Below, piece by piece: positions 20,832 through 40,582 of a stretch of 64,000 nucleotides of DNA. The position numbers and the translations under genes are program-made. A model generated the notes under the pieces. That model ran no database searches. It was given only the letters and a program-made list of their open reading frames with translations, and was not told where the DNA came from. The DNA comes from Candidatus Iainarchaeum sp. (GTDB taxonomy: Archaea; Iainarchaeota; Iainarchaeia; Iainarchaeales; JAAZKV01), in contig JAPLVR010000001.1 in NCBI GenBank assembly GCA_026397015.1, forward strand, positions 21,745 to 85,744, in the 5' to 3' direction. Each line of letters begins with the position of its first letter. Position 1 is the stretch's first letter.

Positions 20832-20867
20832 AAAATTAGAGTCAAATAGTAAGTTCTCATATTGTAT

Positions 20868-23810: not shown

Positions 23811-23834
23811 AATGAGAAACAAGATCCTAACAAA

Positions 23835-23854
23835 GTTTGGCGGTTCCTATGCGA
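23835..23854 (+). other. 3' strand of the 23S processing helix
   Basis: GTTTGGCGGTTCCTATGCGA is complementary to 20812-20831. Confidence 0.7.
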
Positions 23855-23945
23855 CACTATTAAAACTAATTTTCAAAAATACTATTTGGCGTGTCACGGA
23901 AGGCGTGAACAAAAGCTATATAAGCTAGAATTTCCTTTATTAAAG

Positions 23946-25007
23946 ATGCTTTCTACCGAGGCACGCCTGGTTTTAGCAAGTAATCTGAAAAAAGTACAAG
24001 CAACTATTTTCTCGCAATCAGATGGGCAGCCAGACTTGGATCAATATTTGGCAAAAGAAGATAAAAAAAAATATTTACGCAGTTTGGGATTCAATTTTGG
24101 TTCAGCAAAACAGATTTGTGGAACGACAACAATTTATACAATAAATCTTACAAAGAAACCAAAGCAAAAGTCGTTTGAGCCCAAACGTGGGCGGTTTTTC
24201 ATAGCGGTAACCGAAGGTGATTCTTTTTTTTATGTTCTTACCGACAGTAACTTAGTTTTTTTGAAACATGCAGTTATTCCTTTTATTACATATTTAACAT
24301 ACCCAAACATAACTCGCGCAACTTTGACCTCATTGGAGTTGCAAAATGTTATACAAAATTTTTCAGCAACATTGAATGCTGGCGTTTTTGTTAATAAATC
24401 AAGTGGAAAAGGAATGTTTGGAAAAAAACCTCAAACAATAATTAAGTTCGAAAAAAATAATCCAGTTTCGCTAAATTCGGTTTATAAACAAGCGGTGAAT
24501 CAAGACCTGTGGGTTCATTGGTTAAGTCTATTGATGCGAGGAAAAAATGATTCCATGAAAGTTAATATTTCCCGAGATGGGACTATCAGTTTTCCAAAAG
24601 AATCATTAGGTAAAGCTCTTATTTTGTTTGAGATTATAGGAAAAATTGCCGAATCCCAAAATGTTCTGTTAAAGGATAAAGAGATAAAACCCGAACAAGA
24701 AATGAAATCAATAATTCTTAGGTACGGGGAAGAAATTTTTTCCGAAAAGAAACATTTGCTTCAACTATTAGACACTATAAAAAAGTATAAAGATTCAAGC
24801 TATTCAATAATTCACTCCGGAAATCCGCACATTTATATGTATTTACAAGATACTGTTGACAAATCATCATTTTCTATTAGAAATTTGAGACAAGATTCGA
24901 TTTTAATCACGCCTCAAATAAGGTGTGGCGCAAGTGCTCTTTCAAGATTTATAAGTTACTTGAATGAAGATTTTAGAGAGGCAATTGAAACAAATGTTTG
25001 TGATTAG
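23946..25007 (+). CDS. Hypothetical 353-aa protein, first gene of the island
   Basis: ATG 23946 lies ~20 nt after the TATA-like AAGCTATATAAGC. AT-rich coding sequence with no recognised motif. Confidence 0.55.
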   Translation: MLSTEARLVLASNLKKVQATIFSQSDGQPDLDQYLAKEDKKKYLRSLGFNFGSAKQICGTTTIYTINLTKKPKQKSFEPKRGRFFIAVTEGDSFFYVLTDSNLVFLKHAVIPFITYLTYPNITRATLTSLELQNVIQNFSATLNAGVFVNKSSGKGMFGKKPQTIIKFEKNNPVSLNSVYKQAVNQDLWVHWLSLLMRGKNDSMKVNISRDGTISFPKESLGKALILFEIIGKIAESQNVLLKDKEIKPEQEMKSIILRYGEEIFSEKKHLLQLLDTIKKYKDSSYSIIHSGNPHIYMYLQDTVDKSSFSIRNLRQDSILITPQIRCGASALSRFISYLNEDFREAIETNVCD

Positions 25008-25008
25008 T

Positions 25009-26037
25009 ATGCCAAAAATGAGTCTTTCAGAAGCAGTTTCAATAAAAGCGAAAGAAATGGACAGGTACCACCAACAAATATTGTTATGTCTCGGATTATT
25101 ATTTTTTTTTGAAAAAAATAAATCTCTTGGAATGTTTGTTGGGGCCGAGATAGACCTGAAATATGCACTAAATAGTGTGCAAAAATGTGTTCGCCCAGAT
25201 GTAATAATTCAAGCATGGAAAAAAGATGGGAAATTATTTGGGATTCCAATCGAAATTAAATTGTCAGTAGATTATGATATTGAAATAAAAAAAGAATTAA
25301 ATGAAATGAAACGTTATGATAACCAATTATCAGGGTGGAAAGAATTTGAAGGCTTGACGCCTGATGATCATGTAATAGTTTATGCCCCGAACGGTCTTGA
25401 CTCTGGAAAGGTTAAAAGGGTACTTGAACAGGAGTTGAAAAGTGGAAATATTAAGTTTAACAGAGAATTTTGTATTTGGGAATGGCAAACAGTGACGAGT
25501 CAAAAATACGGGAAGGGCGATGTTTTATTGATAAAGCAAATTTTTGGAGATTTACATGGAATGTGTGATTCACTAAACAAGCAACTTACCGATGGGATTC
25601 CTATTGATTATGAGTCTGAAGAATTCGCCAAGAAAAGAGAAGGGGCTGTTTTTACTAGAAAAAAACCACCAAAAGAATACATGATGGTTTGGCTTTGGAC
25701 CAATGTTTTGCAACAATCTGTGGATTCTTCCAGCAATATAACCCTTGATGAGCTTACTAAAAAAGTTAACCAATTTTATAAGTCGGAGCTGATGAATAAC
25801 AATGACGGACAATCTTTTTTTATTAAAAAGGACTGGATTAGGGAAGCTATGGATTGGTTTTGTAAAATTAAACTTTGTAAAGAAAGTTCCGAAACGTGTT
25901 ATAACATTGTAATGAACAAAAAAATTAGAAACATATCAAAATTTATTTGTACACAAGTAGCAAAAAAGGAAAAACTGCGCAAAATTAACACTGACACAAA
26001 CCAAATGGCACTTGAAACATTTACACAAGGAAGTTAA
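25009..26037 (+). CDS. PD-(D/E)xK nuclease-like protein, 342 aa
   Basis: Its ATG is 1 nt after the upstream stop. VRPDVIIQAWKKDGKLFGIPIEIKL fits PD-x(n)-ExK. The C-terminal third may be DNA-binding. Confidence 0.5.
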   Translation: MPKMSLSEAVSIKAKEMDRYHQQILLCLGLLFFFEKNKSLGMFVGAEIDLKYALNSVQKCVRPDVIIQAWKKDGKLFGIPIEIKLSVDYDIEIKKELNEMKRYDNQLSGWKEFEGLTPDDHVIVYAPNGLDSGKVKRVLEQELKSGNIKFNREFCIWEWQTVTSQKYGKGDVLLIKQIFGDLHGMCDSLNKQLTDGIPIDYESEEFAKKREGAVFTRKKPPKEYMMVWLWTNVLQQSVDSSSNITLDELTKKVNQFYKSELMNNNDGQSFFIKKDWIREAMDWFCKIKLCKESSETCYNIVMNKKIRNISKFICTQVAKKEKLRKINTDTNQMALETFTQGS

Positions 26038-26081
26038 TTCAAATAACTTTCAACTATTTTAATTTGTGATTAAAAAAATGA

Positions 26082-26342
26082 TTAATGTGTCTCCTCACAC
26101 GCCTTCCCATCCTTATCATGATCCAGTCCGTGCACGTCTCTTCCGCATTTTTCCAGCATTTCCTGTGCCCCCTCCTGCGTCTCAAAGTCATTGCAGTTAT
26201 ATTTGTCGTAAGCGCAGTCCGGCGGCGTTACTTCGTCGAGGGAGATTTTTTCAGGGCGGGCGGATTCTTCGGATTGAATGCAGCCGGAAATTAGAGCAAA
26301 TATCAGGATAATTGCAATTATTTTGTTTAATGACTCGCTCAT
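26082..26342 (-). CDS. Secreted lipoprotein with an Excalibur Ca-binding motif
   Basis: Lipobox LISGC, and C-terminal [10 protein letters not shown] (DxDxDGxxCE). Confidence 0.7.
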
Positions 26343-26353
26343 TTAATCGCCAT

Positions 26354-26405
26354 ATTCTATATAGAATAAACCACAAAGGATTTATAAATATATTCTATAT
26401 AGAAT
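26354..26405. promoter_or_regulatory. Two copies of the perfect palindrome ATTCTATATAGAAT flanking a TATA box (TTTATAAATA, 26381-26390)
   Basis: Palindromes at 26354-26367 and 26392-26405, centres 38 bp apart. They sit between the divergent Excalibur gene and the small-ORF/R-M operon. Confidence 0.6.
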
Positions 26406-26419
26406 TAATTCTGGGAATT

Positions 26420-26590
26420 ATGCCTGAAAAATACCAATACGAAGCCAAAATAAGCAAAACAACCGACAACAAGAAGCTCGCCACAGGCGAAAAAAAAGCC
26501 TATAACTATGGCACAATTAATCTAAGAAAACCAGAACTCGCCAAATACATAGGAAAAATAGCTAAAATTGAGGTAAAAATACAGGATTGA
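26420..26590 (+). CDS. 56-aa protein, possible AbrB/SpoVT-like controller of the R-M gene
   Basis: MPEKYQYEAKISK...GTINLRKPELAKYIGKIAKIEVKIQD. ATG ~30 nt after the TATA box. Its stop overlaps the R-M start region. Confidence 0.4.
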   Translation: MPEKYQYEAKISKTTDNKKLATGEKKAYNYGTINLRKPELAKYIGKIAKIEVKIQD

Positions 26591-26595
26591 TTTCT

Positions 26596-29523
26596 ATGGT
26601 TGGTGCAGGGGGCAAACTTCAAGAAAATTCTTTCAATGCCCTTTTAACAAAAGAACTTATTGACCTAGAATTAGACGCTAATTTTGAAGAGCACTTTACA
26701 ACATTTCAGGGGCTAAAAAAACCAGACATCTCAATTAAATTCAAAGATACTTATTTTTTTGTAGAATCAAAACAAGAGCCAGCTAAACTAATTGATGCAA
26801 TCAGCAAAGCGTATCTTTATCAACAATCCATTAGGCAGGCTAAACTCAACACAATTGTTTTTGGAGTTCTTTTTCCAAAAGATGGTGGAACAAAAAAGAT
26901 TGAAGCTGCATGTCTGTTGAATAAGGAGCCATTTTTTCAGCAAGAAACATTTTTCACGCTTGGGGAATTGGCTCGTTGGATAAAAGAAGTTATAACCGAA
27001 GAGAAACCAATTGCTGAACTCAGTACAACAAAATTTATCAAAATATTAACAGAAGCGGTTCATTCCATAGATAAAAATCTCAAAACACTAAAACTTGATG
27101 AAATAGAAAGTATTTTTGGTGGAAAAACCTTTTTTGAAACAATACTTGGATATTCGGAAGAAGAAAAAATACCGATTGAAAATTTGCGAGTGGCATCCTC
27201 ATATCTGCTTGTAAATCAAATATTTTTCTATCAGATTCTTGCAACTGAAACAAAAAAATATCCACTGTTCGATGTTGAAAAAATAACATCTTCCAACGAA
27301 ATATATGATAGGCATTTTGCAAAAGTTCTTGAAGACGATTATGAACCAATATTCAGTTTTAACATAATATCAAAATTGAGTGGAAAAGAAGCTCTTGCAA
27401 ACGTATTGACTGTTGTTTCAGCAATTCAGGCACTTTCAACGAGCAAGCAAAATCACGACTTACTCGGAAAAATATTTCATAATCTCATACCGTTGGACAT
27501 AAGGAAAGTTGTAGCTGCATTTTATACAAACTCCGAAGCAGGCAACCTTCTTGCTGATTTGGCTATAGAAAAATTTGATGAAAAAATATTAGATACTGCC
27601 TGTGGCTCTGGAACATTGCTTGTTTCCTCTTATAGAAGGAAAAAAGAACTTTTTGAAAAACAATTTGGGGATTTCAGTGAAGATGCACACAAAAAGTTTC
27701 TTTCAAAAGATATATTCGGGGTGGATATAATGCCTTTTGCCGCTCATTTGGCCGCGATAAATCTTGCATTGCAAGCTCCGCTCTACGAAACTGACATATT
27801 GAATATTGCCATACACGATTCGACAGATTTATCGCCAGAAAGAGAACTGGAAGCCGCAGAAGAAACTATAAGAGAAGGTTTTAAACAACAAAAACTTTTT
27901 GATTTTGGAAAAAGTAGGGCAGAAAAAACAAGCGCAAAGGGCGTTGTGTCTCTTTACAAAAATAAGCACAAAATAGTTTTGCCATATTTTGATGTTGTAA
28001 TAATGAATCCGCCATTTACCCGTTTTCAAAGAATACCACCAGAATTCAAACAGATATTGGAAAATAGATTTAGCGGCAAATATAGAAAGATAATAAGCGG
28101 GCAATTAGGCTTGCACGGATATTTTTTATTGCTCGCAGATAAATTCCTAAAAGAAGATGGTAGGATAGCGGCCGTATTGCCGCTCACAACAATCAGCACA
28201 AGTAGTTTTTATCAACTCATAAAAATGCTCCTTGAAGAATATTGTATAGAATATGTAGTAGCGTCAGATGGCAGAGCCGCGTTTTCTGAAAACACAAGTT
28301 TAAGAGAAATACTTTTAATTGCCAAAAAACAGAAGCCAAAAAAAGACCATGAGCTTAAGCTCGTGATACTAAATATGTCGCCTGCACAACTAAATGAAAA
28401 GACCACAAAAGAAATAAGCATGAGGCTAAGGCAATTTTCCGCTCTTGAACTGAAAGAAAAAGAAGAAGACTATTTTTACATAAAAACTTTCAAGCAAGAA
28501 GACCTGAAAGCCAACATAAGACAATTGTATCATTCAATAACACTTTCTTCAAAAGAGCTTATACAAATAAATAAGAAATTGGAAAAAGTTCTTGAAAATG
28601 AAAAGACAGAAACTTTGAAAATAATTTCAGAAAAAAACAGGTGGGAAATAAAAGAAAACCCAAGAGGATTAAATATTTATAACTATTCTGCACTAACTAT
28701 ATTGAATGATGAAAAACGCGCCTTGAAAAAAACAGATTTCTGGCTTGCCAAAGAAAAAACAAGAGAATTTGTTACAGTGCTCAACAAAATCAATGGAAAT
28801 AAATTTAAAATACCAACCAAAGCACTTGCAAAACAATTTAGAAGATTCTCAACAATAAACACAATCAACATAGACAAGAAAACCGATTATCTTGTAAAAG
28901 ACGACTTTCAAGGGTTTGAAGTATTTTTGGAAAATGGTTTTGTAAAAAGAAGCGAAATCAAAAAAACAGCAAAAGCAATAGAGTTTGGTGAATTTAACAC
29001 ATTTATACAAAGAAACTCATCCAATCTTTTCTTTTTCTATAGGGGTGATTTAACCGCCCCAAACACGAATTGCTTAAGTGTAAACTGTCAAGAAAAAGTA
29101 TTTGCCGGTTCTGGCGGAAGTTGGGTTTTTTACGGTCTAAAAAATAATGAGGCAAACAATCTTTCTTTGTGGCTAAATTCAAGTTTGCAATTGTTCCAAG
29201 TTTTACGAGATAGAAAAGAAACAAGAGGCGGATGGATGGAAATAGACAAATATGTTTTAGACGAGTCTAAAATTCTGAACTTGGATAAATTAACAAAAAC
29301 TGATAAAGAAAAATTGGATAATTTATACGAAAAGATCAAAGATACTCAGTTCCCTTCTTTAATCGAGCAATTGAAAACAAAAAATTCAATAAGAAAGCAA
29401 ATTGACACTACATTTTTGTCAATATTGGGCATGAATAAAGCAGAAGCAGAAAGCTTGCTTGAAGAGTTATATCCAGCAATCTATAAAGAATTGGTAAAGT
29501 TAAAGGGAGTAATGGGCAAATAA
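26596..29523 (+). CDS. Type IIG/IIL (MmeI-like) fused restriction endonuclease / N6-adenine DNA methyltransferase
   Basis: N-terminal KKPDISIKFKDTYFFVESKQ (PD-x13-ExK). AAFYTNSEAGNLLADLA, motif I ILDTACGSGTLL, motif IV VIMNPPF. A long C-terminal region would be the target-recognition domain. Confidence 0.85.
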   Translation: MVGAGGKLQENSFNALLTKELIDLELDANFEEHFTTFQGLKKPDISIKFKDTYFFVESKQEPAKLIDAISKAYLYQQSIRQAKLNTIVFGVLFPKDGGTKKIEAACLLNKEPFFQQETFFTLGELARWIKEVITEEKPIAELSTTKFIKILTEAVHSIDKNLKTLKLDEIESIFGGKTFFETILGYSEEEKIPIENLRVASSYLLVNQIFFYQILATETKKYPLFDVEKITSSNEIYDRHFAKVLEDDYEPIFSFNIISKLSGKEALANVLTVVSAIQALSTSKQNHDLLGKIFHNLIPLDIRKVVAAFYTNSEAGNLLADLAIEKFDEKILDTACGSGTLLVSSYRRKKELFEKQFGDFSEDAHKKFLSKDIFGVDIMPFAAHLAAINLALQAPLYETDILNIAIHDSTDLSPERELEAAEETIREGFKQQKLFDFGKSRAEKTSAKGVVSLYKNKHKIVLPYFDVVIMNPPFTRFQRIPPEFKQILENRFSGKYRKIISGQLGLHGYFLLLADKFLKEDGRIAAVLPLTTISTSSFYQLIKMLLEEYCIEYVVASDGRAAFSENTSLREILLIAKKQKPKKDHELKLVILNMSPAQLNEKTTKEISMRLRQFSALELKEKEEDYFYIKTFKQEDLKANIRQLYHSITLSSKELIQINKKLEKVLENEKTETLKIISEKNRWEIKENPRGLNIYNYSALTILNDEKRALKKTDFWLAKEKTREFVTVLNKINGNKFKIPTKALAKQFRRFSTINTINIDKKTDYLVKDDFQGFEVFLENGFVKRSEIKKTAKAIEFGEFNTFIQRNSSNLFFFYRGDLTAPNTNCLSVNCQEKVFAGSGGSWVFYGLKNNEANNLSLWLNSSLQLFQVLRDRKETRGGWMEIDKYVLDESKILNLDKLTKTDKEKLDNLYEKIKDTQFPSLIEQLKTKNSIRKQIDTTFLSILGMNKAEAESLLEELYPAIYKELVKLKGVMGK

Positions 29524-29658
29524 CTAATTTAAGAGCAAAGCCATTAAGAGCAAAAAAATTATATAAAACCCAACTTTAATGAATTTAAGTGCGAGTTGGC
29601 AGCTTTAAGTGCAACTTAGACTTTAGGCGCAAAGTTGATGGAAGCCATAAAAAGAGAT

Positions 29659-29919
29659 TTATTGAAATCCTTTTATTCTTTGGCGCACCGTTTTTTCTAT
29701 TAATGGATTATCTTTCAGAATTTGTTGGCGTCTTGTTTTGAGAAAAATTTTTTGTTGCTTTTTTTCCTCGTCAGATAAAAACAATAAGGTGTCAAGTTTT
29801 CCTATTCTTTCTCTCAATATATCCTTTGGAATGCTGTAGGTCTCACCTAAGTATTGGTATATTTCTATTTTTCTTACCGTTACGGCTTCCATCAATTCAG
29901 CAAAATTTTCTAACTTCAT
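29659..29919 (-). CDS. Hypothetical 86-aa protein
   Basis: ATG 29919 is 1 nt after the stop of the upstream 177-aa ORF (TGAtATG). Confidence 0.4.
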   Translation of the reverse strand: MKLENFAELMEAVTVRKIEIYQYLGETYSIPKDILRERIGKLDTLLFLSDEEKKQQKIFLKTRRQQILKDNPLIEKTVRQRIKGFQ

Positions 29920-29920
29920 A

Positions 29921-30454
29921 TCACTCCACCATGAAATTAACAAATTTATCAAAATCATCTTCTAACGTAGTTTCTATCGTAGAACTAAAAAAATCAGCAA
30001 CCATTGGTTCCGGGATATTGCCTTTTTCGGCTATTAGTGATATCATCCCTGAATTAGAAGCAGACTGACATAACCCACTTGAAACCTCTTGGATAATTGG
30101 GGCTGCAAGCCGACCAGCTTGTGGCAACAGCGCATTTTTTAGGTCATCAATTAACCCTGCTTTATTGTTATTTTTGAAGTCTGAAATAGTTTTCTGGATT
30201 AGCCTTCCAGCTTTAACAAATTCATAAATGGTCAGTAGGAGTGGACCTCCAAGAGTTGCAGAAACTACTACAGCACCAACGACTCCGCGTATTAGATCTT
30301 CTCGAGAGGAATTTGTATAAATAACCCTCTTATTTCCTGTTGCCTTGGTTTTCCATGAACCATCCCTTCGTCTATATCTATACATTCTATGCCCTCTAGT
30401 CATCTTCCTGTTGTCATATGCATAATATCTTTCGCAAAACTTGTTTTTAAACAC
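29921..30454 (-). CDS. Hypothetical 177-aa protein with a basic N-terminus and one TM-like segment
   Basis: RYRRRDGSWKTK..., then GVVGAVVVSATLGGPLLLTIYEFV. Confidence 0.45.
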   Translation of the reverse strand: MFKNKFCERYYAYDNRKMTRGHRMYRYRRRDGSWKTKATGNKRVIYTNSSREDLIRGVVGAVVVSATLGGPLLLTIYEFVKAGRLIQKTISDFKNNNKAGLIDDLKNALLPQAGRLAAPIIQEVSSGLCQSASNSGMISLIAEKGNIPEPMVADFFSSTIETTLEDDFDKFVNFMVE

Positions 30455-30569
30455 TCTTGGGGTAGCTTGCCGGTGTTTAAGCTCCTTTATTTCAAAGTGT
30501 AATTGTAGAGTTTACCCAAAGACAGATGGGTTAAAAAATCAAAGCTGAGCGATTATTATTGGTGTTTGG

Positions 30570-31298
30570 TTGGTCGTTAAACACAGAAGTTTTTTAGTAG
30601 TACTTGGGATTTTTTCGGCTTTAACTTTGGGGTTAATTGTTACATCTCTTGCTTTTTTGCCAACTAGCTTGGGACCGGTAACTGTTGATAAAAATATTGC
30701 GATTGTAGGGTTTGTTTTAGACATTTGTGTAGCGCTTGGAACAGTTGGCGTTTTGATTTGGGTTGTTTATGAAAAGGCAGAAAATGAAACTAAACTTCTT
30801 GTTGAATTCGAAGATATGCGTCCGTTTGTTACAAAAAACATAAAAGTTTTAGGAACTGACATTATAAATGACTGGTATCGTTTAAGGATAAAAAATATTG
30901 GAGAAACAACCGCGAAAAATGTTTATTCCAGACTAATGTCAATCAAAAGATTGGATTCGGGCCAGCCGATTGATTATGATCCTCACACCCTGCATTGGGT
31001 CGGGATGCGTCCAGTAACGTCTGGAGGAAAGCAGGTGTTAGTTAGAGAATATTTGCCAAGAAATTTTGCATCAAAGGATGAAGATTTTGTTGATTTATTC
31101 TATGTTGATTATCCTCAAAGATTGGTTGTCATTGCAGATGATAACATTCCAAGAGGCAATATTGGTGCAATAAGTGATTCTGGAAAATATCGTTTCAAGA
31201 TAAATGTTTTTTGTGATAATGCCGAAATTGTTTCTATTGAAAAAACATTTACTTTTACTTTTGGAGAAGTCCCGATTTCAGTAAAATTAGAAGCATAA
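30570..31298 (+). CDS. Membrane-anchored (2 TM) protein with a beta-rich C-terminal domain
   Basis: Two N-terminal hydrophobic helices. No known motif. Confidence 0.5.
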   Translation: MVVKHRSFLVVLGIFSALTLGLIVTSLAFLPTSLGPVTVDKNIAIVGFVLDICVALGTVGVLIWVVYEKAENETKLLVEFEDMRPFVTKNIKVLGTDIINDWYRLRIKNIGETTAKNVYSRLMSIKRLDSGQPIDYDPHTLHWVGMRPVTSGGKQVLVREYLPRNFASKDEDFVDLFYVDYPQRLVVIADDNIPRGNIGAISDSGKYRFKINVFCDNAEIVSIEKTFTFTFGEVPISVKLEA

Positions 31299-31336
31299 CG
31301 TATTTTTTGTTGAATAGACCTTCTGCTTTTGTCATT

Positions 31337-31370
31337 GTTTTCAAAAAGCAGTTGCGTGACCCGGGCGGGA
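31337..31370 (+). repeat. Island intergenic repeat, copy A
   Basis: GTTTTCAAAAAGCAGTTGCGTGACCCGGGCGGGA. Compare copy B at 36341-36392. Confidence 0.65.
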
Positions 31371-31424
31371 GAGAGCATTTAGGAAATCAAATTATATAAA
31401 AATGTTCTTCGCCTTATTTTTTTC

Positions 31425-31970
31425 ATGCCGCCCTCCGCCGTCAAATCAATTCGAGATTTAATCTTTTGGCAGTATGCGAAGCTCGTTTCGAAGTCCGCGG
31501 GTTTCGGAATCAACGCAAGAGCCTTTCAGATGAGCACTTTCAAAAAGCTCCAATCGGAAGAAATGCAGTGGTCGGGAACAATCAGGGAGTATGTTAAGGA
31601 GCACGAAAAGCCGAACGAGTGCATTTATTGCGGCGTGAAAACTAATCTGACTCTTGAGCATATTCTTCCGAAGTGCTGCGGCGGCCCGGATTCTACTGAT
31701 AATTCGGTTTGGATTTGCAAGTCCTGCAATTCAAAGAAAGGCGGAAAGCGCCTTTACGAATATTTCGGATTGGGAAACAAGGATAAAATACCGAGGATAG
31801 CGGAAGGAAAATACTTGAAACTGCTTTATTCTTTGCACGAGAAAAAAGGCACGCTGAATGAAACCGATTTGTCGAAATTTTGCGAGGTTTGCGATTTGGG
31901 CGCGAAATGCCCGAAAAAGGCGAAATTGACGGTTTATTGCCTGGAAGGAGCGTTTCAGAAACAAAATTAA
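31425..31970 (+). CDS. HNH endonuclease
   Basis: CIYCGVKTNLTLEHILPKCCGGPDSTDNSVWICKSCNSKKG (CxxC...H...N...CxxC). Confidence 0.8.
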   Translation: MPPSAVKSIRDLIFWQYAKLVSKSAGFGINARAFQMSTFKKLQSEEMQWSGTIREYVKEHEKPNECIYCGVKTNLTLEHILPKCCGGPDSTDNSVWICKSCNSKKGGKRLYEYFGLGNKDKIPRIAEGKYLKLLYSLHEKKGTLNETDLSKFCEVCDLGAKCPKKAKLTVYCLEGAFQKQN

Positions 31971-31990
31971 TGCAATTTGTTGATAGATTG

Positions 31991-32695
31991 TTAATTTTTC
32001 TTCTTGAATCGCAGAACACCAACAATAATGTAGGTTTTCGGGCTTTTGTGGATATTTCCGACAAGGAAATATGTTTTCCACTCTTTGTCGGTTAAACGCA
32101 GGTTGTCGAAGACTTTTTTGCAGTGCTCTTTGCTGTCGGGGTTCTTTCTCATCCATTCGTAACAGCCCCATTCGACGATTTGCTGTTTGTGCTGCGGGTT
32201 CTTGCACGAGCATTTTGCTGTGCATTCATAAACTACATATGGTTTGAATTTGAATTCGTTTTGGTTTATTATATAATAATCTGGATCGAAAAGTTTGGTC
32301 TGGATTGATGTTGCCGAGTTTTGTGTGACAAGCTCAAAGTCAATGATTTTTGGTTCAATTACCCCGAAACTTTTTCTCGCCTTAATAAGGTCTCCAAGGT
32401 TGTCTTTTGCGAGTGATTGTATTAATTTGCTTCTTTCTTCTTTTGGATATTCGCTTTTTTTTCTAATCCATTTTTCGATTCTCTGCCAGTCCTCTTTTGA
32501 GCGGTAAATTTTCCAGGTATTTTCTCTGTGGTCCTGAGTATTTAGCTCGACGGTAGCATCAAAGACATCCCACTGGCGAAGCAACTTTTTTGGAATCGGG
32601 TAAAGTCTTACGAGGCCGTGTTCTTTTGAGTAAGCGCAAACGCATCTTGATATTCGGCCGCCGCTCAAACTGTTTGGTGCGCCTTGGCCTAACAT
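31991..32695 (-). CDS. Hypothetical 234-aa Cys/His-rich protein
   Basis: ECTAKCSCKNPQHKQQIVEWGCYEW...HCKK. Start ATG 32695 lies 20 nt after the DUF488 gene stop. Confidence 0.5.
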   Translation of the reverse strand: MLGQGAPNSLSGGRISRCVCAYSKEHGLVRLYPIPKKLLRQWDVFDATVELNTQDHRENTWKIYRSKEDWQRIEKWIRKKSEYPKEERSKLIQSLAKDNLGDLIKARKSFGVIEPKIIDFELVTQNSATSIQTKLFDPDYYIINQNEFKFKPYVVYECTAKCSCKNPQHKQQIVEWGCYEWMRKNPDSKEHCKKVFDNLRLTDKEWKTYFLVGNIHKSPKTYIIVGVLRFKKKN

Positions 32696-32715
32696 GACCA
32701 AGTCTTTGAGTTCAA

Positions 32716-33549
32716 TCAAATGTGAACAACCTCGTGGTTCAAAAAATCGCTTAAGACTCCGCGATGGCAAAAATCCTTGTCCGCTTCGAAGCACATGAGG
32801 GCAATTTTTTCCTTTTTACCGAGGGATTCCAGTTCGGTTATTTTTTCCTTTTTATCAGGCAAGGATGCTTCGTATTCTTTGAACAGTTCCTTGTAATCTT
32901 CTTCGGAATTCAGTTCCTTCCTTTTTTCGGATTCTATTCCGAGTTCGGGAAAATGAATGTATCTTATATTGACGTCGGCTAAATGTTTCGATAAACTATT
33001 TTTTGAAAATCCTTTTTTCATGCTCATTGCATTTTTTCTTACGTCAACCAAAATTGAAATCTTGTTTTTGACCAATTCGTTAAGGAATCCGTCCAGTGTT
33101 TTTCCTTCGTATCCGATTGAGCAGACGCCTTTCTCAGGCCCACCTTTTTCCATTCTTGGCGAATCACTATTGATTGTAAATTCTACAAAATTTGCATAAA
33201 CAAAATTTTTTATTGCATCAGTAGTTGGATGTTCTTCAACTATACGGCCGGCTTCTGAATTGATTTCATTGGCATTATCAATTTTGTTTATTAATTCTAT
33301 TCCATTCTTGGTTAGTTCCAATCTATTTTCGTTAAGAAGCCCCTCACTTTCAAGATAAGAAAGGTCGGCATAAATTTGATTAGAAAACGGCCCGTATTTG
33401 TACGGGAAAAAGTCGTAGCCGATTTTTTCAAACCCGAACTTTTGCCTCAGCAAAAAAATAGTTTTAACTAGGTATGTCTTTGACCTAATTTTCCTTTCAC
33501 TCAGCTTTTTAATTATTTGAAGCAATAGTTTTTGCCTTCTGTAAAGCAT
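32716..33549 (-). CDS. wHTH (YwgA/SocA-like) N-terminal domain fused to DUF488
   Basis: N-terminal FPYKYGPFSNQIYADLSYLESEGLL. C-terminal IGYEGKTLDGFLNELVKNKISILVDVR...ALMCFEADKDFCHRGVL is a typical DUF488 pattern. Confidence 0.7.
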   Translation of the reverse strand: MLYRRQKLLLQIIKKLSERKIRSKTYLVKTIFLLRQKFGFEKIGYDFFPYKYGPFSNQIYADLSYLESEGLLNENRLELTKNGIELINKIDNANEINSEAGRIVEEHPTTDAIKNFVYANFVEFTINSDSPRMEKGGPEKGVCSIGYEGKTLDGFLNELVKNKISILVDVRKNAMSMKKGFSKNSLSKHLADVNIRYIHFPELGIESEKRKELNSEEDYKELFKEYEASLPDKKEKITELESLGKKEKIALMCFEADKDFCHRGVLSDFLNHEVVHI

Positions 33550-33621
33550 GCAATAAATAGTGATTTATGGTATATAAATTATTCGTAACCTTTCTGCTGG
33601 TGACGAAATTTCAAAGCCTTG

Positions 33622-33658
33622 AATCCTCCCAAAATCGCGTTTTTAAAAAGCAGTCCCG
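33622..33658 (+). repeat. Island intergenic repeat, copy C
   Basis: AATCCTCCCAAAATCGCGTTTTTAAAAAGCAGTCCCG. Confidence 0.6.
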
Positions 33659-33681
33659 AACCCTGTTCGGCTTGGAGCGTT

Positions 33682-33763
33682 CAGCCTTTTTTTCGAAAAA
33701 AAGCCGTGGCACCCTGCAGGGTGTCACGCTTCGTCCCCTAAGGGGACTTAGTGGCGAAAAAAA
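33682..33763 (+). repeat. Expanded hairpin element
   Basis: The T7/A7 hairpin CAGCCTTTTTTTCGAAAAAAAGCC is followed by two extra hairpins (GTGGCACCCTGCAGGGTGTCAC and GTCCCCTAAGGGGAC) and then GGCGAAAAAAA. Confidence 0.65.
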
Positions 33764-33848
33764 TGCGCTAATAATACTAACAAAATAATTAAAACAAAAA
33801 AGCTAAGAAAAAAATAATACGCTCGTTAAATCTTTAAAACCACGAATC

Positions 33849-34142
33849 TTACCAATTTTTTCTCACTGTTTTTGCAATTCTTTTTCCGGTTTTTGGGTCG
33901 TATTCTATAAGGACACTTTTTCTTAGGCCGCCTTCTAAAGAAGTATATTCCTTTTCATAAGACTGCCTTACTCCCTCACGAGTCCATTTTTTGGTTTTAC
34001 TCAGTCTCGCATACGGAGAAAATAGCGATGCTAATATTCGTTTGCCGCTCTTTTCGAAGCCGTGGACATATTGTTCTAATCCGCCTTTACCTTGCCTTGC
34101 CCCTCTCATTGCCCTGTCACTCAAAAACCTCTTTATCGGCAT
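33849..34142 (-). CDS. Hypothetical 97-aa basic protein
   Basis: ATG 34142 with TTTTATATATT ~30 nt upstream. Confidence 0.35.
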   Translation of the reverse strand: MPIKRFLSDRAMRGARQGKGGLEQYVHGFEKSGKRILASLFSPYARLSKTKKWTREGVRQSYEKEYTSLEGGLRKSVLIEYDPKTGKRIAKTVRKNW

Positions 34143-34181
34143 CCAATCACCATTAATAAGACTCAACCCAAATATATAAAA

Positions 34182-34226
34182 CTTTCCAAACCGCGTTTTT
34201 GCGGAAGAGCAGTCGGGTAACCTGGG
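34182..34226 (+). repeat. Island intergenic repeat, copy D (degenerate)
   Basis: CTTTCCAAACCGCGTTTTTGCGGAAGAGCAGTCGGGTAACCTGGG. Confidence 0.5.
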
Positions 34227-34304
34227 AACATTTGAGCGTGTATTCTTCAAACCGGCACCGCGCCCCCGATTAATTTAAAACCCTAAATTTGCTTATTTTT
34301 AGGC

Positions 34305-35477
34305 ATGGCAATCTATTCGCATTCGAAATTGGCTGCTTTTGAGGATTGCAGGTACAAGTACAAATTGTGCTACATTGACGGGATTAAGTTTGAGCGGGCC
34401 AAGGCGGCGCATTTGGTGCTTGGCGGCGTTGTTCACGGGGTTTTGGAAAAGCTTTACTCCGATTTAAAGTACCAAAAAACCGATTCTTTGAAGGATTTGC
34501 TGGATTTTTTTGACGATTGCTGGGAGAAAGAGTGGACTGATGAAGTAATTAACCCGAAAGAAAGCGAAGGCATTACCGAAGAGCACTTTAAGTCCATGGG
34601 AAAAAAGTATATTGAGGAATATTACGGCCGCTACAAACCCTTTAACCAAATCAAAATAATTGGTTTAGAAACACAGGACAAACTAAAACTAAAGAACGGG
34701 AGCTATTATCATATCAGAATCGACAAATTGGCCTGCGACGGGGACACATACTACGTTTGCGACTACAAAACCAACTTAGGCATGAAAGACCAGAGTGATG
34801 CCGACCAGGACCGGCAGCTGGCAATGTATTCTTTGTGGGTAAAGAAAACGTTCAGGGATGCTAAAAAGATAGTTTTGTTGTGGCACATGCTGGCTTTCGA
34901 CAAGGAAGTGGCCTCGGAAAGAACTGCTGAACACCTCGAAAAACTTGAAGACGAAGTGGTAAAACTGATAGAAGAAATCGAGTCAACCAAGCAATTTCCG
35001 ACAAACGTTACCGGAAGATGCGATTACTGCGAATACAAACAAATGTGCCCGAGTTTTAAGCATGAAGCGGAGCTGGAAACAAAAACGGTGAAAGAATTCA
35101 AAGCGGATGAAGGGGTAAAACTGGTGAACAAATACGCCAAACTAAAAGATACGGAAAGCCGGGTAAAGGAAGAAGCTGAGGAAACAAAATCGGACTTAAT
35201 TGCATTCTCAATACAAAAAGAAGTAGACGTAATTTATGGCTCGAACAAAAAAGTGTCGGTAAAAGAATATGACAAAATCATGTGGTCCGAGGAAAACAAA
35301 GAAAAGCTGGCGGAGCTGCTCAAAAAAGGCGGCTTATACGAAGAATTCTCGATGATAAGCTATCCAAAGCTCAATGCGCAAATAAACGAAGGAAACCTAG
35401 GAAAGCCCATAACAAAATTGGCGCAAAAAGAAAAAGACTACCGAGTAAATCTGTCAAATAAGAAAAAAGAAGAATGA
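34305..35477 (+). CDS. Cas4/RecB-like PD-(D/E)xK nuclease with a Fe-S Cys cluster
   Basis: N-terminal FEDCRYKYKLCY, RIDKLACDGDTYYVCDYKT (D...D/ExK), QLAMY, C-terminal GRCDYCEYKQMCP. Confidence 0.8.
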   Translation: MAIYSHSKLAAFEDCRYKYKLCYIDGIKFERAKAAHLVLGGVVHGVLEKLYSDLKYQKTDSLKDLLDFFDDCWEKEWTDEVINPKESEGITEEHFKSMGKKYIEEYYGRYKPFNQIKIIGLETQDKLKLKNGSYYHIRIDKLACDGDTYYVCDYKTNLGMKDQSDADQDRQLAMYSLWVKKTFRDAKKIVLLWHMLAFDKEVASERTAEHLEKLEDEVVKLIEEIESTKQFPTNVTGRCDYCEYKQMCPSFKHEAELETKTVKEFKADEGVKLVNKYAKLKDTESRVKEEAEETKSDLIAFSIQKEVDVIYGSNKKVSVKEYDKIMWSEENKEKLAELLKKGGLYEEFSMISYPKLNAQINEGNLGKPITKLAQKEKDYRVNLSNKKKEE

Positions 35478-35630
35478 GCTCATCGTGAATTTTATATACA
35501 TAACCAGCCGGCTTCCGCAAAACTCTTATAAATGACTTTGTTGCAATAAAATAATATCAAGTCCCCAGTATGCCCTTGCGCGTAAGTGCATGGAAATGCT
35601 GGGCTTATACTTATTTCTTTGGGAATTGCC

Positions 35631-36278
35631 ATGACTTCAAAAAGGGCGATGCTATTTATTGATGGAAATAATTTCTATCACAATCTTAGAGCGAGCAATA
35701 TTTCGCCCAGCAGTATTGATTTTCTAAAATTGTCGGAAGTAGTTTGCAATAAATTTCACACTTCAAGAGTTAAAACGATTTATTACAATTCGTCACCAAG
35801 TATAGAATCCGGACAGCAGGCATACTATGACCAAATGAGATTTTTTGGAGAACTTCAGAATTTGCCAAAGTTTGAAGTAAAATTACGAAAGCTCCAGAAG
35901 CATAGCAACGCAGAAGTTATAAGAAAGGCCCATGAGAGGGTAGATGCATTGATATTATGCTCAAAATGCAAGCCCATTGTCAGGGCCGAATTCGCGGAAA
36001 CAATAAAACGAAGCAAATATAGAGAAAAAGGAGTGGATGTTTCAATTGCAATCGATATGGTTGCTTTGGCTTATTCAAATGACTATGATGTGTGCATATT
36101 GCTTTCAGGAGATGCTGATTTTATTCCTGCGTTGGAGCTTGTTCAACTTCTGGGAAAAGAGGTTAGAAGCACGTTTTTGAAGTTTGGGTATTCTACTCAA
36201 TTAAGACAAAAATTTCACAGTAACTTCATGTACCTTGATAAACAATTATTGGAAGAGCATTGTTCAAAAGAAAGTTGA
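35631..36278 (+). CDS. NYN (LabA/DUF88) domain RNase-like protein
   Basis: AMLFIDGNNFYHNL, EKGVDVSIAIDMV, ILLSGDADFIPALELV. Confidence 0.8.
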   Translation: MTSKRAMLFIDGNNFYHNLRASNISPSSIDFLKLSEVVCNKFHTSRVKTIYYNSSPSIESGQQAYYDQMRFFGELQNLPKFEVKLRKLQKHSNAEVIRKAHERVDALILCSKCKPIVRAEFAETIKRSKYREKGVDVSIAIDMVALAYSNDYDVCILLSGDADFIPALELVQLLGKEVRSTFLKFGYSTQLRQKFHSNFMYLDKQLLEEHCSKES

Positions 36279-36340
36279 AAGTCAAACCTCTCTTTCCTTC
36301 TTGTATCTTTCCAAGAACTCCGGCTCGGGAACAACGCAAA

Positions 36341-36392
36341 ATCCTTCCAAATTCGCATTTTCAAAAAGCAGTCGCGTGGCCTGGGCGGCGAG
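36341..36392 (+). repeat. Island intergenic repeat, copy B
   Basis: ATCCTTCCAAATTCGCATTTTCAAAAAGCAGTCGCGTGGCCTGGGCGGCGAG. Confidence 0.65.
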
Positions 36393-36421
36393 TCTGTGAA
36401 CGCCGTTAAAAAAACTGTTTT

Positions 36422-36823
36422 TTATTGGCTGGAAATTTTTATGTCTATTCCTGTATAGAGAGGAAACGCGTACACAATCTGCTTGAATTGTTTTAGTGTT
36501 ACCAATCCAAGATTTTTGAGGTATGTAATATCCCTGCTTATTGCTTCCTGGTGCCTGTCAAGTTTCTTTGCCAAATCAGAAATTGATAAAGGGTGCTCTC
36601 CAGTCTGTGTTTCCATAAGGTATAACAGCAAGTCCATTTTCGACGGCGATAGCAGTTTGTCGAGTTGGGCGTATGATTTTAGGTAAAGCATATTTTCTGA
36701 CTGCTTTATTCGCGACAAGGGTTTTTTTGAAAACAGTTCTTTGTAATCCGCCTCAATATCCCCCCCTATTTTTATGTGCAATATTTTATTTTTAGAAACC
36801 ATTCTCTCGCCCCCTTTGGCCAA
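36422..36823 (-). CDS. wHTH DNA-binding protein, TumA / HVO_A0114-like putative antitoxin
   Basis: LLSPSKMDLLLYLMETQTGEHPLSISDLAKKLDRHQEAISRDITYLKNLGLV. Confidence 0.6.
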   Translation of the reverse strand: MAKGGERMVSKNKILHIKIGGDIEADYKELFSKKPLSRIKQSENMLYLKSYAQLDKLLSPSKMDLLLYLMETQTGEHPLSISDLAKKLDRHQEAISRDITYLKNLGLVTLKQFKQIVYAFPLYTGIDIKISSQ

Positions 36824-36893
36824 TACGACAATTTATGATATGTATGTTATATAACCTGTAAGTTAATAAGCATTCCTGTTAGGAAATCGAACC

Positions 36894-37229
36894 TCATATT
36901 TTCCACTTCCTTTTGTATTTTTGCAGGTATTCCTCCCATTTATTTTCTACATCCTTTTTGAATTCATTAAAGCTTTTTTGGGATATTCTATGGTCGGGCA
37001 GGATGTCTCCACAGTGGTTGATGTTTTCGTAATATTTGTGGGCATGGCAATGCCCGTGTGCCGTATCGTATTTGATTATTTGGCGCTGCTTTTCTTCAGA
37101 AACGTGGAGCTGTATTATGCAGAACTCTTTCAATGTTTTTGTTTTTTCTTCAAAATCTATTCGCGTTAATATGAAATTCGCCAAATCCCCGTCAAGCGGT
37201 TCCTTTTTTTCAAATATTTTGATGCCCAT
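36894..37229 (-). CDS. TumE-like putative toxin
   Basis: IKYDTAHGHCHAHKY resembles the TumE (R/K)(W/Y)DNAPHH...HHKH motif. It lies immediately upstream of the wHTH gene. Confidence 0.5.
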   Translation of the reverse strand: MGIKIFEKKEPLDGDLANFILTRIDFEEKTKTLKEFCIIQLHVSEEKQRQIIKYDTAHGHCHAHKYYENINHCGDILPDHRISQKSFNEFKKDVENKWEEYLQKYKRKWKI

Positions 37230-37323
37230 GCACAGCGCCTGAATGGATCTAGCTCAGAGACTATTTATAGTTTTCTGGAGTTGCATGCCAGTGATAGAAT
37301 CTTGGCGAATAAAAACAGGGTTT

Positions 37324-37875
37324 TCAAATCTTATTTTCTTTTTTGTACCTTTCTAAAAACTCAGGCATCGTCTTGTACAGCCACGCATTCAAATGTATAA
37401 ACGATTTCGTTTCGTCTTTAATGTAATCAATTATCTTCCCATACTCTTTTCGTTGGTACCAAATAGGAACATCCTTTCCGTTTGTTTTTTTGCCGGAGAT
37501 TTTGTCCAGCCCCGAGCCTTTGAATTCGCCTTTGTTCATTATTATTCCGAAGGCGCGCAAATCGATGAAGGGCTTGTTCAGAATATCGACGGGGTTGAGG
37601 CTGTGCAGGGCGGTTCTTTCTTTCAAAAAGTTGTGTTCGAAGTTGAGGTTGTAGCCGGTGGGAATGAATGTGAAGGGATAATCCTCTTCAATTCCGGATT
37701 TCCGTATAAATTCGGTTAAAATTTCCCTTTCAGAGGATTCCCACTCTTTCAAAATAGTAAGTTCTCCGATTGCTTCGCCCGTGCCCCTGTTTAGTTCCTG
37801 GAACTGGATTGTAATAATCTTGGCCGTTTTCGAGTCTAACCCTGTTGTTTCTATGTCGAAGTAAAAATTGCCCAT
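37324..37875 (-). CDS. DEDD-type 3'-5' exonuclease (RNase H-like fold)
   Basis: Exo I motif FYFDIETTGLD, then GYNLNFEHNFL. Confidence 0.7.
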   Translation of the reverse strand: MGNFYFDIETTGLDSKTAKIITIQFQELNRGTGEAIGELTILKEWESSEREILTEFIRKSGIEEDYPFTFIPTGYNLNFEHNFLKERTALHSLNPVDILNKPFIDLRAFGIIMNKGEFKGSGLDKISGKKTNGKDVPIWYQRKEYGKIIDYIKDETKSFIHLNAWLYKTMPEFLERYKKENKI

Positions 37876-37974
37876 ATGAGGGAATAATTAAGCATTAGAA
37901 ATAATAAATGGGGGTTTCTGGAAAAAATGGTCGGGCAAAAGAATTATTAAATTGCTTGGCATATTTTAATTTCT

Positions 37975-38391
37975 ATGGGCAGATCAATTTTTGGCAAAAC
38001 TGACAAAATAAATGTTTTTGATAAGGGGCATATTTTATCGCAAGTTCAGATTTGGCTTTTTGGTTTCTATTTTTTGAACAGCATATCTGCATTTAATCTG
38101 GTGATTTTCGGGTATGCGAAGTCTTCAAGCCCGGTCTATCAATATCTTATGCCGGAATTGGCTTTTTTTGAGCTCATAATTGGAATAATACTTGGCACCT
38201 TTTCCATAATAGGGTTCATTCTTGCTTTTAAACGGACAAAATGGCTGGCGCCCCATCTAATTCTAATGGCTTTGCCGTTATTGCTGCAATTCATCTTGGA
38301 AATCAGTATGATGTGGGTGCTAATGCTGATTGAGTTTGTTATAGTAATAATTTTGTACGCAAAAGCAAAAAAGCTCGGCGCGCTGAATTGA
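37975..38391 (+). CDS. Small integral membrane protein (4 TM)
   Basis: Hydrophobicity pattern only. Confidence 0.45.
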   Translation: MGRSIFGKTDKINVFDKGHILSQVQIWLFGFYFLNSISAFNLVIFGYAKSSSPVYQYLMPELAFFELIIGIILGTFSIIGFILAFKRTKWLAPHLILMALPLLLQFILEISMMWVLMLIEFVIVIILYAKAKKLGALN

Positions 38392-38562
38392 GCGTTAGAA
38401 ATAAGAAACGAGGCTTTCTGAACTAAGTCAAAAACGGCTACATAACAAAATAGTTAATTTAATATATTCCGGGGCGCAATAATTTATCGTGGGTAAGACC
38501 AAGGGGTTAAGTGTACCTTGAGGTGCACGCAAAACAATGCCTCTTGGGTCCACGGCTTTTTC

Positions 38563-39204
38563 TCAGTTTTTCCAAAGCCTTTTCAGGGTGCCTATTTTCG
38601 GTTCGATTATTTTGTAATACAAGTCATCATTGAAAGAGTATTTTCTGTGCGCCGCCCATGCGACAAAATCCACTATTTGAAGCGCCTTGTTTGCGTACGA
38701 CGGCATGTGAGTTATTTTTACGTTTTCACATAAGTGAGTTTCTTTTATTTTTTTGTAAATATACTGGTCTAAATCTTCCCTGAGCAGTCTGTTGCTGTCT
38801 TTTTTGTCAATTACTATTTCAATTTTTAATTTTTGAAAATCCATTTCTTCTACCAGCACACCGAAAACATAATTATACAACTTGTTTTTGGCGCCGTACA
38901 ATTGTTCCGTTACCTGCTTCTTGTCTATTATTATCAAATCGATTTTACATTCGCACTTAACCAGCCGCTTCAAAACATCAATCCTAATTTCCTGATTTGA
39001 AGAATTCGCTTTCAATTCGGTTATTTCGCGCATTTTCCGCTTCAACCTCCTTTCCCTGACCTTTTTTACTATTCGCTCGATTGGTCTCGGGTCGCCGGTT
39101 GAAAGGCAAGCGATAACGAAATAATTACTGCCGTGCTTTCCCAAGTCGCCGCTTTCATCGACAAAAATGTAAGTAGTTATTTTTTCAAAAACCATGTCAA
39201 TCAA
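38563..39204 (-). CDS. DUF3800 family protein
   Basis: N-terminal YIFVDESGDLG is typical of DUF3800. Confidence 0.7.
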   Translation of the reverse strand: MIDMVFEKITTYIFVDESGDLGKHGSNYFVIACLSTGDPRPIERIVKKVRERRLKRKMREITELKANSSNQEIRIDVLKRLVKCECKIDLIIIDKKQVTEQLYGAKNKLYNYVFGVLVEEMDFQKLKIEIVIDKKDSNRLLREDLDQYIYKKIKETHLCENVKITHMPSYANKALQIVDFVAWAAHRKYSFNDDLYYKIIEPKIGTLKRLWKN

Positions 39205-39353
39205 TAATTAAAAAAGCCGTCGGGCTGAATAAAAACGTTCGCAGAGTTTCGTGCCGGTGATATGCCAAATCAGGCGCAAACCCAGTTCGCAGTTTTCACG
39301 ATTGAATGAAAAAAAGCGGAAGGGGGCGAACCCCCTCCGAACAGTTAAATCCG

Positions 39354-40463: not shown

Positions 40464-40582
40464 TATTAAAACACCTCTGCAATTACTTACGCCGGAACAG
40501 CAGTTATATTCTGCCCGAAAAAGGGCGGAACGAGGCGGAACAGGTGGAAAAATAGGCAAAAATTTGTTAAAAAGGAAGAGTT

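Follow-up and report, generated by a model that had tools for sequence, protein, structure and literature searches.

What lies directly downstream of the 23S rRNA gene in a small archaeal genome, and how did it come to be there? We addressed this question in a stretch of 64,000 nucleotides of Candidatus Iainarchaeum sp. (GenBank assembly GCA_026397015.1, contig JAPLVR010000001.1), called the window below, to which all coordinates refer unless a contig is named. The window corresponds to G000:C6:21745-85744 in our numbering and lies on an 86-kb contig. The host genome (G000) comprises 0.90 Mb in 6 contigs, is 85% complete, and has a GC content of 42.5%; its size, archaeal rRNAs, and relatives identify the host as a DPANN-type archaeon. 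A preliminary description had proposed that an AT-rich mosaic accessory island starts directly after the processing helix of the 23S rRNA and ends at 39204, possibly having displaced or replaced the distal end of the rRNA operon. Our analyses indicate that the locus is probably a flexible genomic island at a recurrent variable spot, built piecemeal rather than acquired as one mobile element.

Protein families were assigned with the hidden Markov models (HMMs) of Pfam, NCBIfam, PADLOC, and PHROGs, and RNA genes with Rfam; open reading frames (ORFs) of at least 60 residues were scanned for recombinase domains. GC content was computed in 1-kb and 2-kb windows, and the GC content at third codon positions (GC3) was compared with that of 537 genes of the genome. 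The number of relatives in which a gene was counted varies with the family (151, 196, or 215 genomes, 151 representing the order and 215 the phylum). The sole other genome of the genus, that of a sister species (G001), is a metagenome-assembled genome (MAG) at 1.4x coverage.

A variable interval between two stable-RNA genes

The island is framed by the following features.

18262-19745, 16S rRNA gene (Rfam)
19984-20057, tRNA-Ala gene (Rfam)
20814-20831, plus strand, 5′ arm of the 23S processing helix, pairing with 23835-23852
20858-23812, 23S rRNA gene (Rfam)
23835-23852, plus strand, 3′ arm of the 23S processing helix, left border of the variable interval
55207-55476, plus strand, RNase P RNA gene (Rfam, 108.6 bits), right anchor of the interval
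56101-57906, plus strand, alaS (Pfam)
58426-60129, minus strand, argS (Pfam)

The RNase P RNA gene was found by Rfam downstream of the 23S gene, on the same strand, in 14 relatives. The gap between the two genes was as follows.

G010, 0.9 kb; G003, 1.5 kb; G039 (another family, complete genome), 1.5 kb; G034, 2.0 kb
G016, 2.6 kb; G006, 3.7 kb; G040, 3.9 kb; G038, 4.2 kb
G012, 5.6 kb; G019, 8.0 kb; G007, 10.1 kb; G018, 12.5 kb
G005, 14.9 kb; G024, 17.8 kb; this window, 31.4 kb

The fill of the window (23.86-55.2 kb) is thus the largest seen, 31.4 kb versus 0.9-17.8 kb in the 14 relatives. In seven genomes, the 23S and RNase P RNA genes lie on different contigs or far apart. Homologues of alaS and argS, and of the genes out to 63.3 kb, are colinear after 23S in relatives. 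The order 23S, RNase P RNA, alaS, argS is kept across several families of the order, and only its first interval varies. The spacing between alaS and argS remains at 0.06-0.7 kb within the family and synteny upstream of 16S is also kept, showing that the neighboring intervals do not vary.

The contents of the interval differ as well. In 16 relatives, the DNA downstream of 23S, taken for up to 20 kb, encodes no homologues of the island proteins of the window, and for the left part the same gene order was not seen beside 23S in any relative. Their intervals carry genes for giant surface proteins, glycosyltransferases, DUF2207, TrkA, an epimerase, an ABC1 kinase, and a helicase, which is typical cargo of flexible islands and not defense genes. 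The comparison with relatives shows the variable unit to be the whole interval from 23S to the RNase P RNA gene, 23.86-55.2 kb. Position 39204, proposed earlier as the end of the island, matches no boundary in composition or in relatives. Rather, a composition border at 31.3 kb and homologues of the 36.4-39.2 kb genes in the sister species, both described below, argue against a single 15-kb unit ending there.

The left border was placed correctly. The processing helix consists of an 18-bp core with one G.U pair (duplex of -38 kcal/mol), extended by about five weaker pairs to ~23857, so that the helix ends at ~23852-23857, and the ATG of the first island gene, preceded by a TATA-like box, is at 23946. 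It is also correct that no 5S gene directly follows 23S, the only 5S gene of the genome being on contig C5. However, a 5S gene was found in 39 of 40 relatives of the order, and in none does it adjoin 23S; it is on a different contig or distant, with separations of 87 kb (G003), 182 kb (G038), 295 kb (G039), and 464 kb (G026), and a minimum of 13 kb (G025). An unlinked 5S gene is the normal state in this order, and the island therefore neither displaced nor replaced a 5S gene.

Cassettes of the AT-rich part

The AT-rich character proposed for the whole island holds for its left half only, since deviant composition is confined to 23.9-31.3 kb. GC content is 33% overall in this part and 0.32-0.38 in 1-kb windows, versus a genome mean of 0.425, and its 2-kb windows belong to the lowest ~1% of the genome (2-kb standard deviation, 0.026). 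The tetranucleotide distance from the genome is at the 97th to 99th percentile. All genes but one have a GC3 of 0.25-0.31 versus 0.46 +/- 0.06 for the genome (z of -2.4 to -3.5), and GC3 steps sharply at 31.3 kb. No compositional anomaly was found at 31.3-39.2 kb, where the tetranucleotide distance is at the 73rd to 88th percentile and GC3 is native for the majority of genes. Composition is near native starting with the HNH gene (31425), with a somewhat low GC3 only for the NYN gene (0.34) and the DUF488 gene (0.38).

Composition marks the AT-rich 7.4 kb as foreign. This block is itself a mosaic of at least three cassettes, split by a gene of native GC content.

23946-25007, plus strand, cassette a1, i01, uncharacterized protein of 353 residues
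25009-26037, plus strand, cassette a1, i02, PD-(D/E)xK nuclease of 342 residues; abuts i01 (GC3 of the pair, 0.27-0.29)
26082-26342, minus strand, orf86, lipoprotein-like, 86 residues, GC 0.48 and GC3 0.54 (native); separates a1 from a2
26354-29538, plus strand, cassette a2, type IIG restriction-modification (R-M) module made up of twin palindromes, a small ORF, and a nuclease-methylase gene
26354-26405, twin palindromes of a2
26420-26590, plus strand, small ORF of a2, 56 residues
26587-29523, plus strand, type IIG nuclease-methylase of a2, 978 residues, P46-D47...E60-x-K62
29527-29640, plus strand, array of ~5 TTTAAGWGCAA-like motifs directly 3′ of the R-M gene, read from the sequence
29659-30454, minus strand, cassette a3, coupled genes for proteins of 177 and 99 residues, GC3 0.25-0.31
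30570-31298, cassette a3, divergent gene for a protein of 242 residues with two transmembrane segments, AT-rich

The R-M module provides direct evidence for movement of a cassette as a unit. The best foreign homologue of the type IIG enzyme, with 81% protein identity versus 46% or less for all others, is encoded on L108, an unrelated 8-kb contig of 32% GC. This contig is 74% identical at the DNA level to window 26355-29538, i.e., from the twin palindromes (26355) to 15 nucleotides past the stop codon (29538), the 56-residue ORF included. The neighbors of the module on L108 are unrelated to those in the window, with a DDE transposase gene directly to its left. Identity bounded by the module in the midst of unrelated neighbors indicates that the 3.2-kb R-M module moves as a unit. 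A similar motif array follows the type IIG homologue on L108 (7295-7360), and it could be a regulatory or binding array.

In this enzyme, a single polypeptide carries the nuclease, the methylase, and the target-recognition part. It matches N6_Mtase (66 bits) and Eco57I (57 bits) of Pfam above cut-off, and REase_MTase_IIG of PADLOC (3.4e-16). With a polypeptide of about 975 residues, an N-terminal PD-x12-ExK motif, gamma-type N6-adenine methylase domains, and a long C-terminal part, it resembles the MmeI-like type IIG/IIL enzymes. It differs from them in that the match to MmeI_Mtase is just under the cut-off (24.9 versus 27 bits) and in that the conserved 56-residue upstream ORF and the twin palindromes travel along with the gene. 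This type IIG R-M enzyme is predicted to cut unmodified incoming DNA. The enzyme is present in 7 of 151 genomes of the order, with at best 40% identity.

As for cassette a1, just 2 of the 215 genomes of the phylum have a member of the i02 family. In the second of these, a distant one (G084), an ORF that resembles i01 at its C terminus abuts i02 in the same way. An alignment of 40 homologues showed that P63, D64, and K84 of i02 are invariant and that E82 is present in at least 90% of them, which corresponds to the PD-(D/E)xK core. The family of i02 is uncurated, with about 108 representative homologues, and its profile gave no match to Pfam or PDB by sequence; the single-sequence AlphaFold model of i02 was unusable (pLDDT, 38). 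For i01, only one distant homologue was found among 5.8 billion proteins. The proteins of cassette a3 have no family match in Pfam, PADLOC, or PHROGs. As for orf86, its C terminus is rich in Cys and Asp, and its only match is a weak one to a PHROG.

Candidate defense genes, repeats, and the right part of the interval

Beyond the composition border, a second group of nuclease and candidate defense genes is found together with short repeats.

31338-31371, plus strand, repeat copy A (right half), 40 nucleotides past the last AT-rich gene, at the compositional border
31425-31970, plus strand, HNH endonuclease, 181 residues (Pfam HNH_5, 2.3e-10; weak PADLOC match to PDC-M01B)
31504-31548, repeat copy A′ (left half), inside the 5′ part of the HNH ORF
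31991-33549, minus strand, two-gene candidate module PDC-M19 (M19A, 32716-33549; M19B, 31991 to ~32695)
33622-33671, plus strand, repeat copy B1 (full type), 80% identical to 36340-36389
33684-33705, plus strand, palindromic hairpin GCCTTTTTTTCGAAAAAAAGCC, of the same family as hairpins flanking the 16S and tRNA-Ala genes
From 33849, minus strand, ORF of 133 residues without family label
34305-35477, Cas4-like PD-(D/E)xK nuclease (PDDEXK_1, HMM)
35586-36278, NYN nuclease (PADLOC HEC-09, 3.3e-15)
36325-36392, plus strand, repeat copy C (fullest)

M19A, a fusion of a winged helix-turn-helix (wHTH) domain and DUF488, gives a full-length match to its PADLOC model (1.6e-75; model positions 2-283 of 294), and the adjacent M19B matches its own model as well (8.8e-08). 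The pairing is kept in G071, G094, and G078, which belong to three other families. M19A is patchily distributed (17 of 196 genomes), and its identity is 59-66% with proteins of other families versus 44-49% with those of its own, which points to transfer. The Cas4-like gene, in contrast to the type IIG, M19A, and i02 genes, whose patchy presence argues for accessory status, is common (80 of 196 genomes) and near-universal in some families; it may have been resident for a long time or function in repair. It adjoins M19A in G012 and DUF3800 in G022. The genes at 31.3-36.4 kb are older, or come from closer donors, than the AT-rich layer.

The PADLOC models thus recovered the type IIG enzyme, PDC-M19A and -B, and HEC-09, with a weak match to PDC-M01B. 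The type IIG, PDC-M19A and -B, HEC-09/NYN, HNH, and Cas4-like genes cluster within 26.6-36.3 kb, and, judging from homology, the left 12.5 kb probably acts as a defense island within the 31-kb fill. Accessory, mosaic status was borne out, as the sister species has no DNA match to 23.9-37.3 kb, genes are patchily distributed, and the R-M cassette occurs elsewhere. Of the gene assignments in the preliminary description, the type IIG, HNH, DUF488, Cas4-like, NYN, DEDD, and DUF3800 proteins were confirmed by HMMs and a third PD-(D/E)xK protein (i02) was supported by alignment, but a TumE/A toxin-antitoxin (TA) pair was not, as detailed below.

Three copies of the repeat core TTTTYAAAAAGCAGTYSCG are present in the genome, at 31338, 33640, and 36358, all on the plus strand and at intergenic junctions. 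Copy A is 90% identical to 36358-36392, an alignment score reached by none of 300 shuffles. In 195 relatives, the core did not occur above control level. On their left side, the AT-rich cassettes are not bordered by any copy. A weak likeness to TTTTCAAAAA...GCGTG at 23870 is not significant by alignment, its score having been reached by 34 and 4 of 300 shuffles; the genome has only three instances of this loose pattern, each of them in this region. The idea that the repeats are relics of 5′ ends of HNH genes is unsupported, with only a 14-residue stretch alike.

Three hairpins of the GCCTTTTTTTCGAAAAAAAGCC family are found in the window (18160-18181, 20060-20081, and 33684-33705), where none was expected. 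The one at 33684 lies in a 300-nucleotide noncoding stretch with two more palindromes (33705-33728 and ~33737-33747), and Rfam gave no match in the noncoding DNA at 33.4-33.95 kb.

The remainder of the interval has the following features.

36422-37229, gene pair for a wHTH protein (HVO_A0114-type) and a DUF7718 protein (HMM)
Within 36422-39204, ORF of 138 residues
37324-37875, minus strand, DEDD/RNase_H_2 exonuclease, 183 residues
38563-39204, DUF3800 protein
39227-39264, minus strand, promoter-like element of 38 nucleotides upstream of the DUF3800 gene, single in the window
39624-51495, rest of the fill, of native composition: regulators, VIT, MacB/ABC exporter, CARDB protein, TauE, GGACT, ZIP, UDP-glucose dehydrogenase
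51666-54467, plus strand, protein of 933 residues, ancestral resident of the interval

The TumE toxin is a DUF6516 protein encoded beside a DNA-binding antitoxin (PMC10584680). The 111-residue protein of the gene pair at 36422-37229 matches DUF7718 (1.9e-10) and has no match to DUF6516 at E <= 0.01; its partner is the HVO_A0114-type wHTH protein. A TA-like layout of the pair is nevertheless plausible.

The composition of the 36.4-39.2 kb block is native. On a contig of the sister species, G001:C16, its genes recur rearranged and interspersed with others, at protein identities of 92% for the DEDD exonuclease, 80% for the DUF3800 protein, and 38% and 24% for the wHTH/DUF7718 pair. The promoter-like element (33-38 nucleotides) is present in two copies on G001:C16, at 2233-2270 and 3108-3140, which bracket the wHTH/DUF7718 pair, as if the pair had been inserted there as a cassette. 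Rearranged sharing and bracketing elements in the sister species argue for shuffling at the cassette level within the genus. At positions 3-1118 of the same contig, an ORF that by eye is a DUF2779-like fusion of Cas4-like and DEDD parts lies beside DUF3800, without a counterpart in the window. Of 151 genomes of the order, only 24 encode the DEDD exonuclease, yet most matches are 56-77% identical across families, and many are at contig ends; it is unusual for a gene to be so highly conserved and at the same time so patchy.

Homologues in the sister species exist for 36.4-49.3 kb, and the rest of the fill is partly common to it, on other contigs. The 933-residue protein has homologues inside the 23S-to-RNase P interval in G018 and G024, and past the RNase P RNA gene, before alaS, in G006.

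Other low-GC islets of the genome (G000:C6:2000-5000, G000:C5:163500-169700, G000:C1:211000-217000, and G000:C2:3000-5500) likewise carry defense-type genes as read by eye. The one on C6 has an AbiEii/AbiEi-like pair and phosphoesterases, and the one on C5 an integrase C-terminal fragment, a DNA methylase, and a second DUF3800 gene. Outside the interval, Rfam reported a 180-nucleotide tRNA match at 6560-6739 (plus strand) that was not called by ARAGORN and is probably an intron-containing tRNA gene. At ~63480-64000 (G000:C6:85226-86230), a weak tblastn match to the DDE transposase of L108 (21% identity, 2.8e-13) may represent a transposase gene.

Origin and assembly of the island

One known kind of genomic island is integrated at the 3′ ends of tRNA or tmRNA genes, rarely of rRNA genes, by means of tyrosine integrases. 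The locus resembles such islands in starting a few bases past the processing unit of a stable RNA and in its foreign composition, the latter at 23.9-31.3 kb only. It differs from them in that it lacks an integrase and a duplicated target end and is not built as a single unit. Pfam, NCBIfam, PADLOC, and PHROGs revealed no integrase, transposase, capsid, replication, or conjugation gene among the ORFs at 23.9-39.2 kb. Collections of phages and plasmids gave no DNA match, and PHROGs none other than that of orf86. The 3′ flank of 23S (23855-23945) is not repeated elsewhere, i.e., there is no target duplication. Integrase-mediated integration into the 23S end is thus not indicated.

Could the locus nevertheless be a single decayed element (a provirus, plasmid, or island) that targeted the 3′ end of the 23S operon via a site-specific recombinase? 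Its start within 10 nucleotides of the processing helix, its deviant composition, the same-strand repeats at 31338, 33640, and 36358 with the weak resemblance at 23870, and the integrase fragment kept in another low-GC islet of the genome would all fit. We nevertheless consider this unlikely, because there are no mobility genes, no phage or plasmid match, and no flank repeat. The putative left-border copy is also not significant, and the block itself is a mosaic, with an R-M part that moves alone elsewhere.

An artifact of assembly, in which the AT-rich 7.4 kb of a co-occurring archaeon of lower GC content was misjoined at the conserved rRNA operon, would account for several features. The GC content of the block (33%) equals that of sibling genera (24-36%), its genes have no homologues in close relatives, and its start coincides exactly with the end of the rRNA operon, where misjoins classically arise and where a contig of the sister MAG also breaks. 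However, the block is internal to the 86-kb contig and two misjoins would be needed, both flanks have orthologues in the sister species, and a native-GC gene (26082-26342) is inside the block. Furthermore, repeat copy A, just past the AT-rich genes, is nearly the same as copy C 5 kb away in native DNA. A chimera is therefore quite improbable.

We give even less credence to vertical inheritance of a native region whose low GC content would result from fast evolution and AT-biased drift of nonessential genes: although the interval is variable in all relatives, with lineage-specific genes everywhere, and the 36.4-39.2 kb part is inherited within the genus, GC3 is 3 standard deviations low for all genes but one up to the sharp step at 31.3 kb, the R-M cassette shares 74% DNA identity with a contig of unrelated neighbors whereas core genes of the sister are 70-77% identical, and gene distributions are patchy and incongruent with phylogeny.

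The half-copies at 31338 and 31504 resemble hybrid sites, which raised the possibility that the repeats are recombination sites for the capture and shuffling of small defense cassettes in the 23S-to-RNase P interval, integron-like but without a recognizable integrase, perhaps through the neighboring HNH or PD-(D/E)xK nucleases. Short same-orientation repeats at the junctions of small modules are indeed reminiscent of integron arrays, but there is no integrase, and the three to four copies, found only at 31338, 31504 (partial), 33622, and 36325, are private to the genome, with one partial copy inside the HNH ORF. We regard such a mechanism as very improbable.

A flexible island at a recurrent variable spot accounts best for these observations, and a number of points weigh against it. 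The insertion mechanism is unsupported, because 23.9-39.2 kb contains no transposase, integrase, or target duplication; the only association with a mobile element is the transposase beside the R-M homologue on L108. In the sister species, the contig with the rRNA operon and its upstream synteny (G001:C11) stops at the position that corresponds to window 23862, and another (G001:C12) starts inside alaS. The RNase P RNA is unassembled and the interval unseen there. The contig break may be due as much to low coverage as to variability. The defense roles are predicted from HMM matches to candidate systems (PDC and HEC), and the Cas4-like nuclease and DEDD exonuclease, being widespread or highly conserved, may be repair rather than defense genes. 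Concerning the contigs of the sister MAG, no overlap joins G001:C11 and G001:C16. When patterns of the 23S flank were used to scan genome contigs, this MAG was the sole match, and scans of metagenome contigs gave none.

Assembly of the island may be envisioned as follows. The ancestral order would have been 16S, tRNA-Ala, 23S, RNase P RNA, alaS, argS, with a stretch between 23S and RNase P RNA that tolerates insertions. The newest layer would be the left 7.4 kb, composed of three foreign AT-rich cassettes with one native-GC gene between them, namely, the pair of an unknown protein and a PD-(D/E)xK nuclease, the type IIG module with its small ORF and operator-like palindromes, and the small-protein pair with the membrane protein. 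The next 5 kb (31.3-36.4 kb) would hold near-native nucleases and candidate defense genes punctuated by the three to four private same-strand repeats, and the remainder, genes partly common to the sister species in rearranged order. Gain was presumably piecemeal, through recombination that was assisted by insertion sequences or illegitimate, and the conserved rRNA and RNase P genes may act as homology anchors. Judging from homology, the other nucleases and small two-gene modules would add further or abortive responses to that of the R-M enzyme.

How does this locus compare with known islands? Like flexible islands, it occupies a fixed interval between conserved genes, with cargo that differs by genome. 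Defense islands have been described (Makarova et al. 2011, as cited in PMC12988326). The likeness lies in the R-M, nuclease, TA-like, and candidate defense genes gathered within about 12 kb, with patchy distribution and partly deviant composition; the differences are that no mobile-element gene is inside and that the interval of relatives holds surface and glycosylation genes. The literature that we searched contained no description of two stable-RNA genes, 23S and RNase P RNA, as island anchors. The likeness to the PADLOC PDC-M19 and HEC-09 systems comprises the full-length match of M19A, the matches of M19B and of the NYN protein, and the adjacency of A and B kept elsewhere, these systems being candidates. 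PDCs have been reported to be enriched in DPANN archaea, as yet as untested candidates (PMC12988326).

R-M and CRISPR systems are reportedly scarce in DPANN archaea (PMC12988326). The genome analyzed here, of 0.9 Mb, spends about 12 kb on nucleases and candidate defense modules at one spot. PDC-M19, the i01-i02 nuclease pair, and the type IIG enzyme make up a compact candidate set. The recurrent variability of the 23S-to-RNase P interval (0.9-31 kb) accounts for the frequent breaks of MAG contigs within it and makes it a good place to seek accessory genes in the order.

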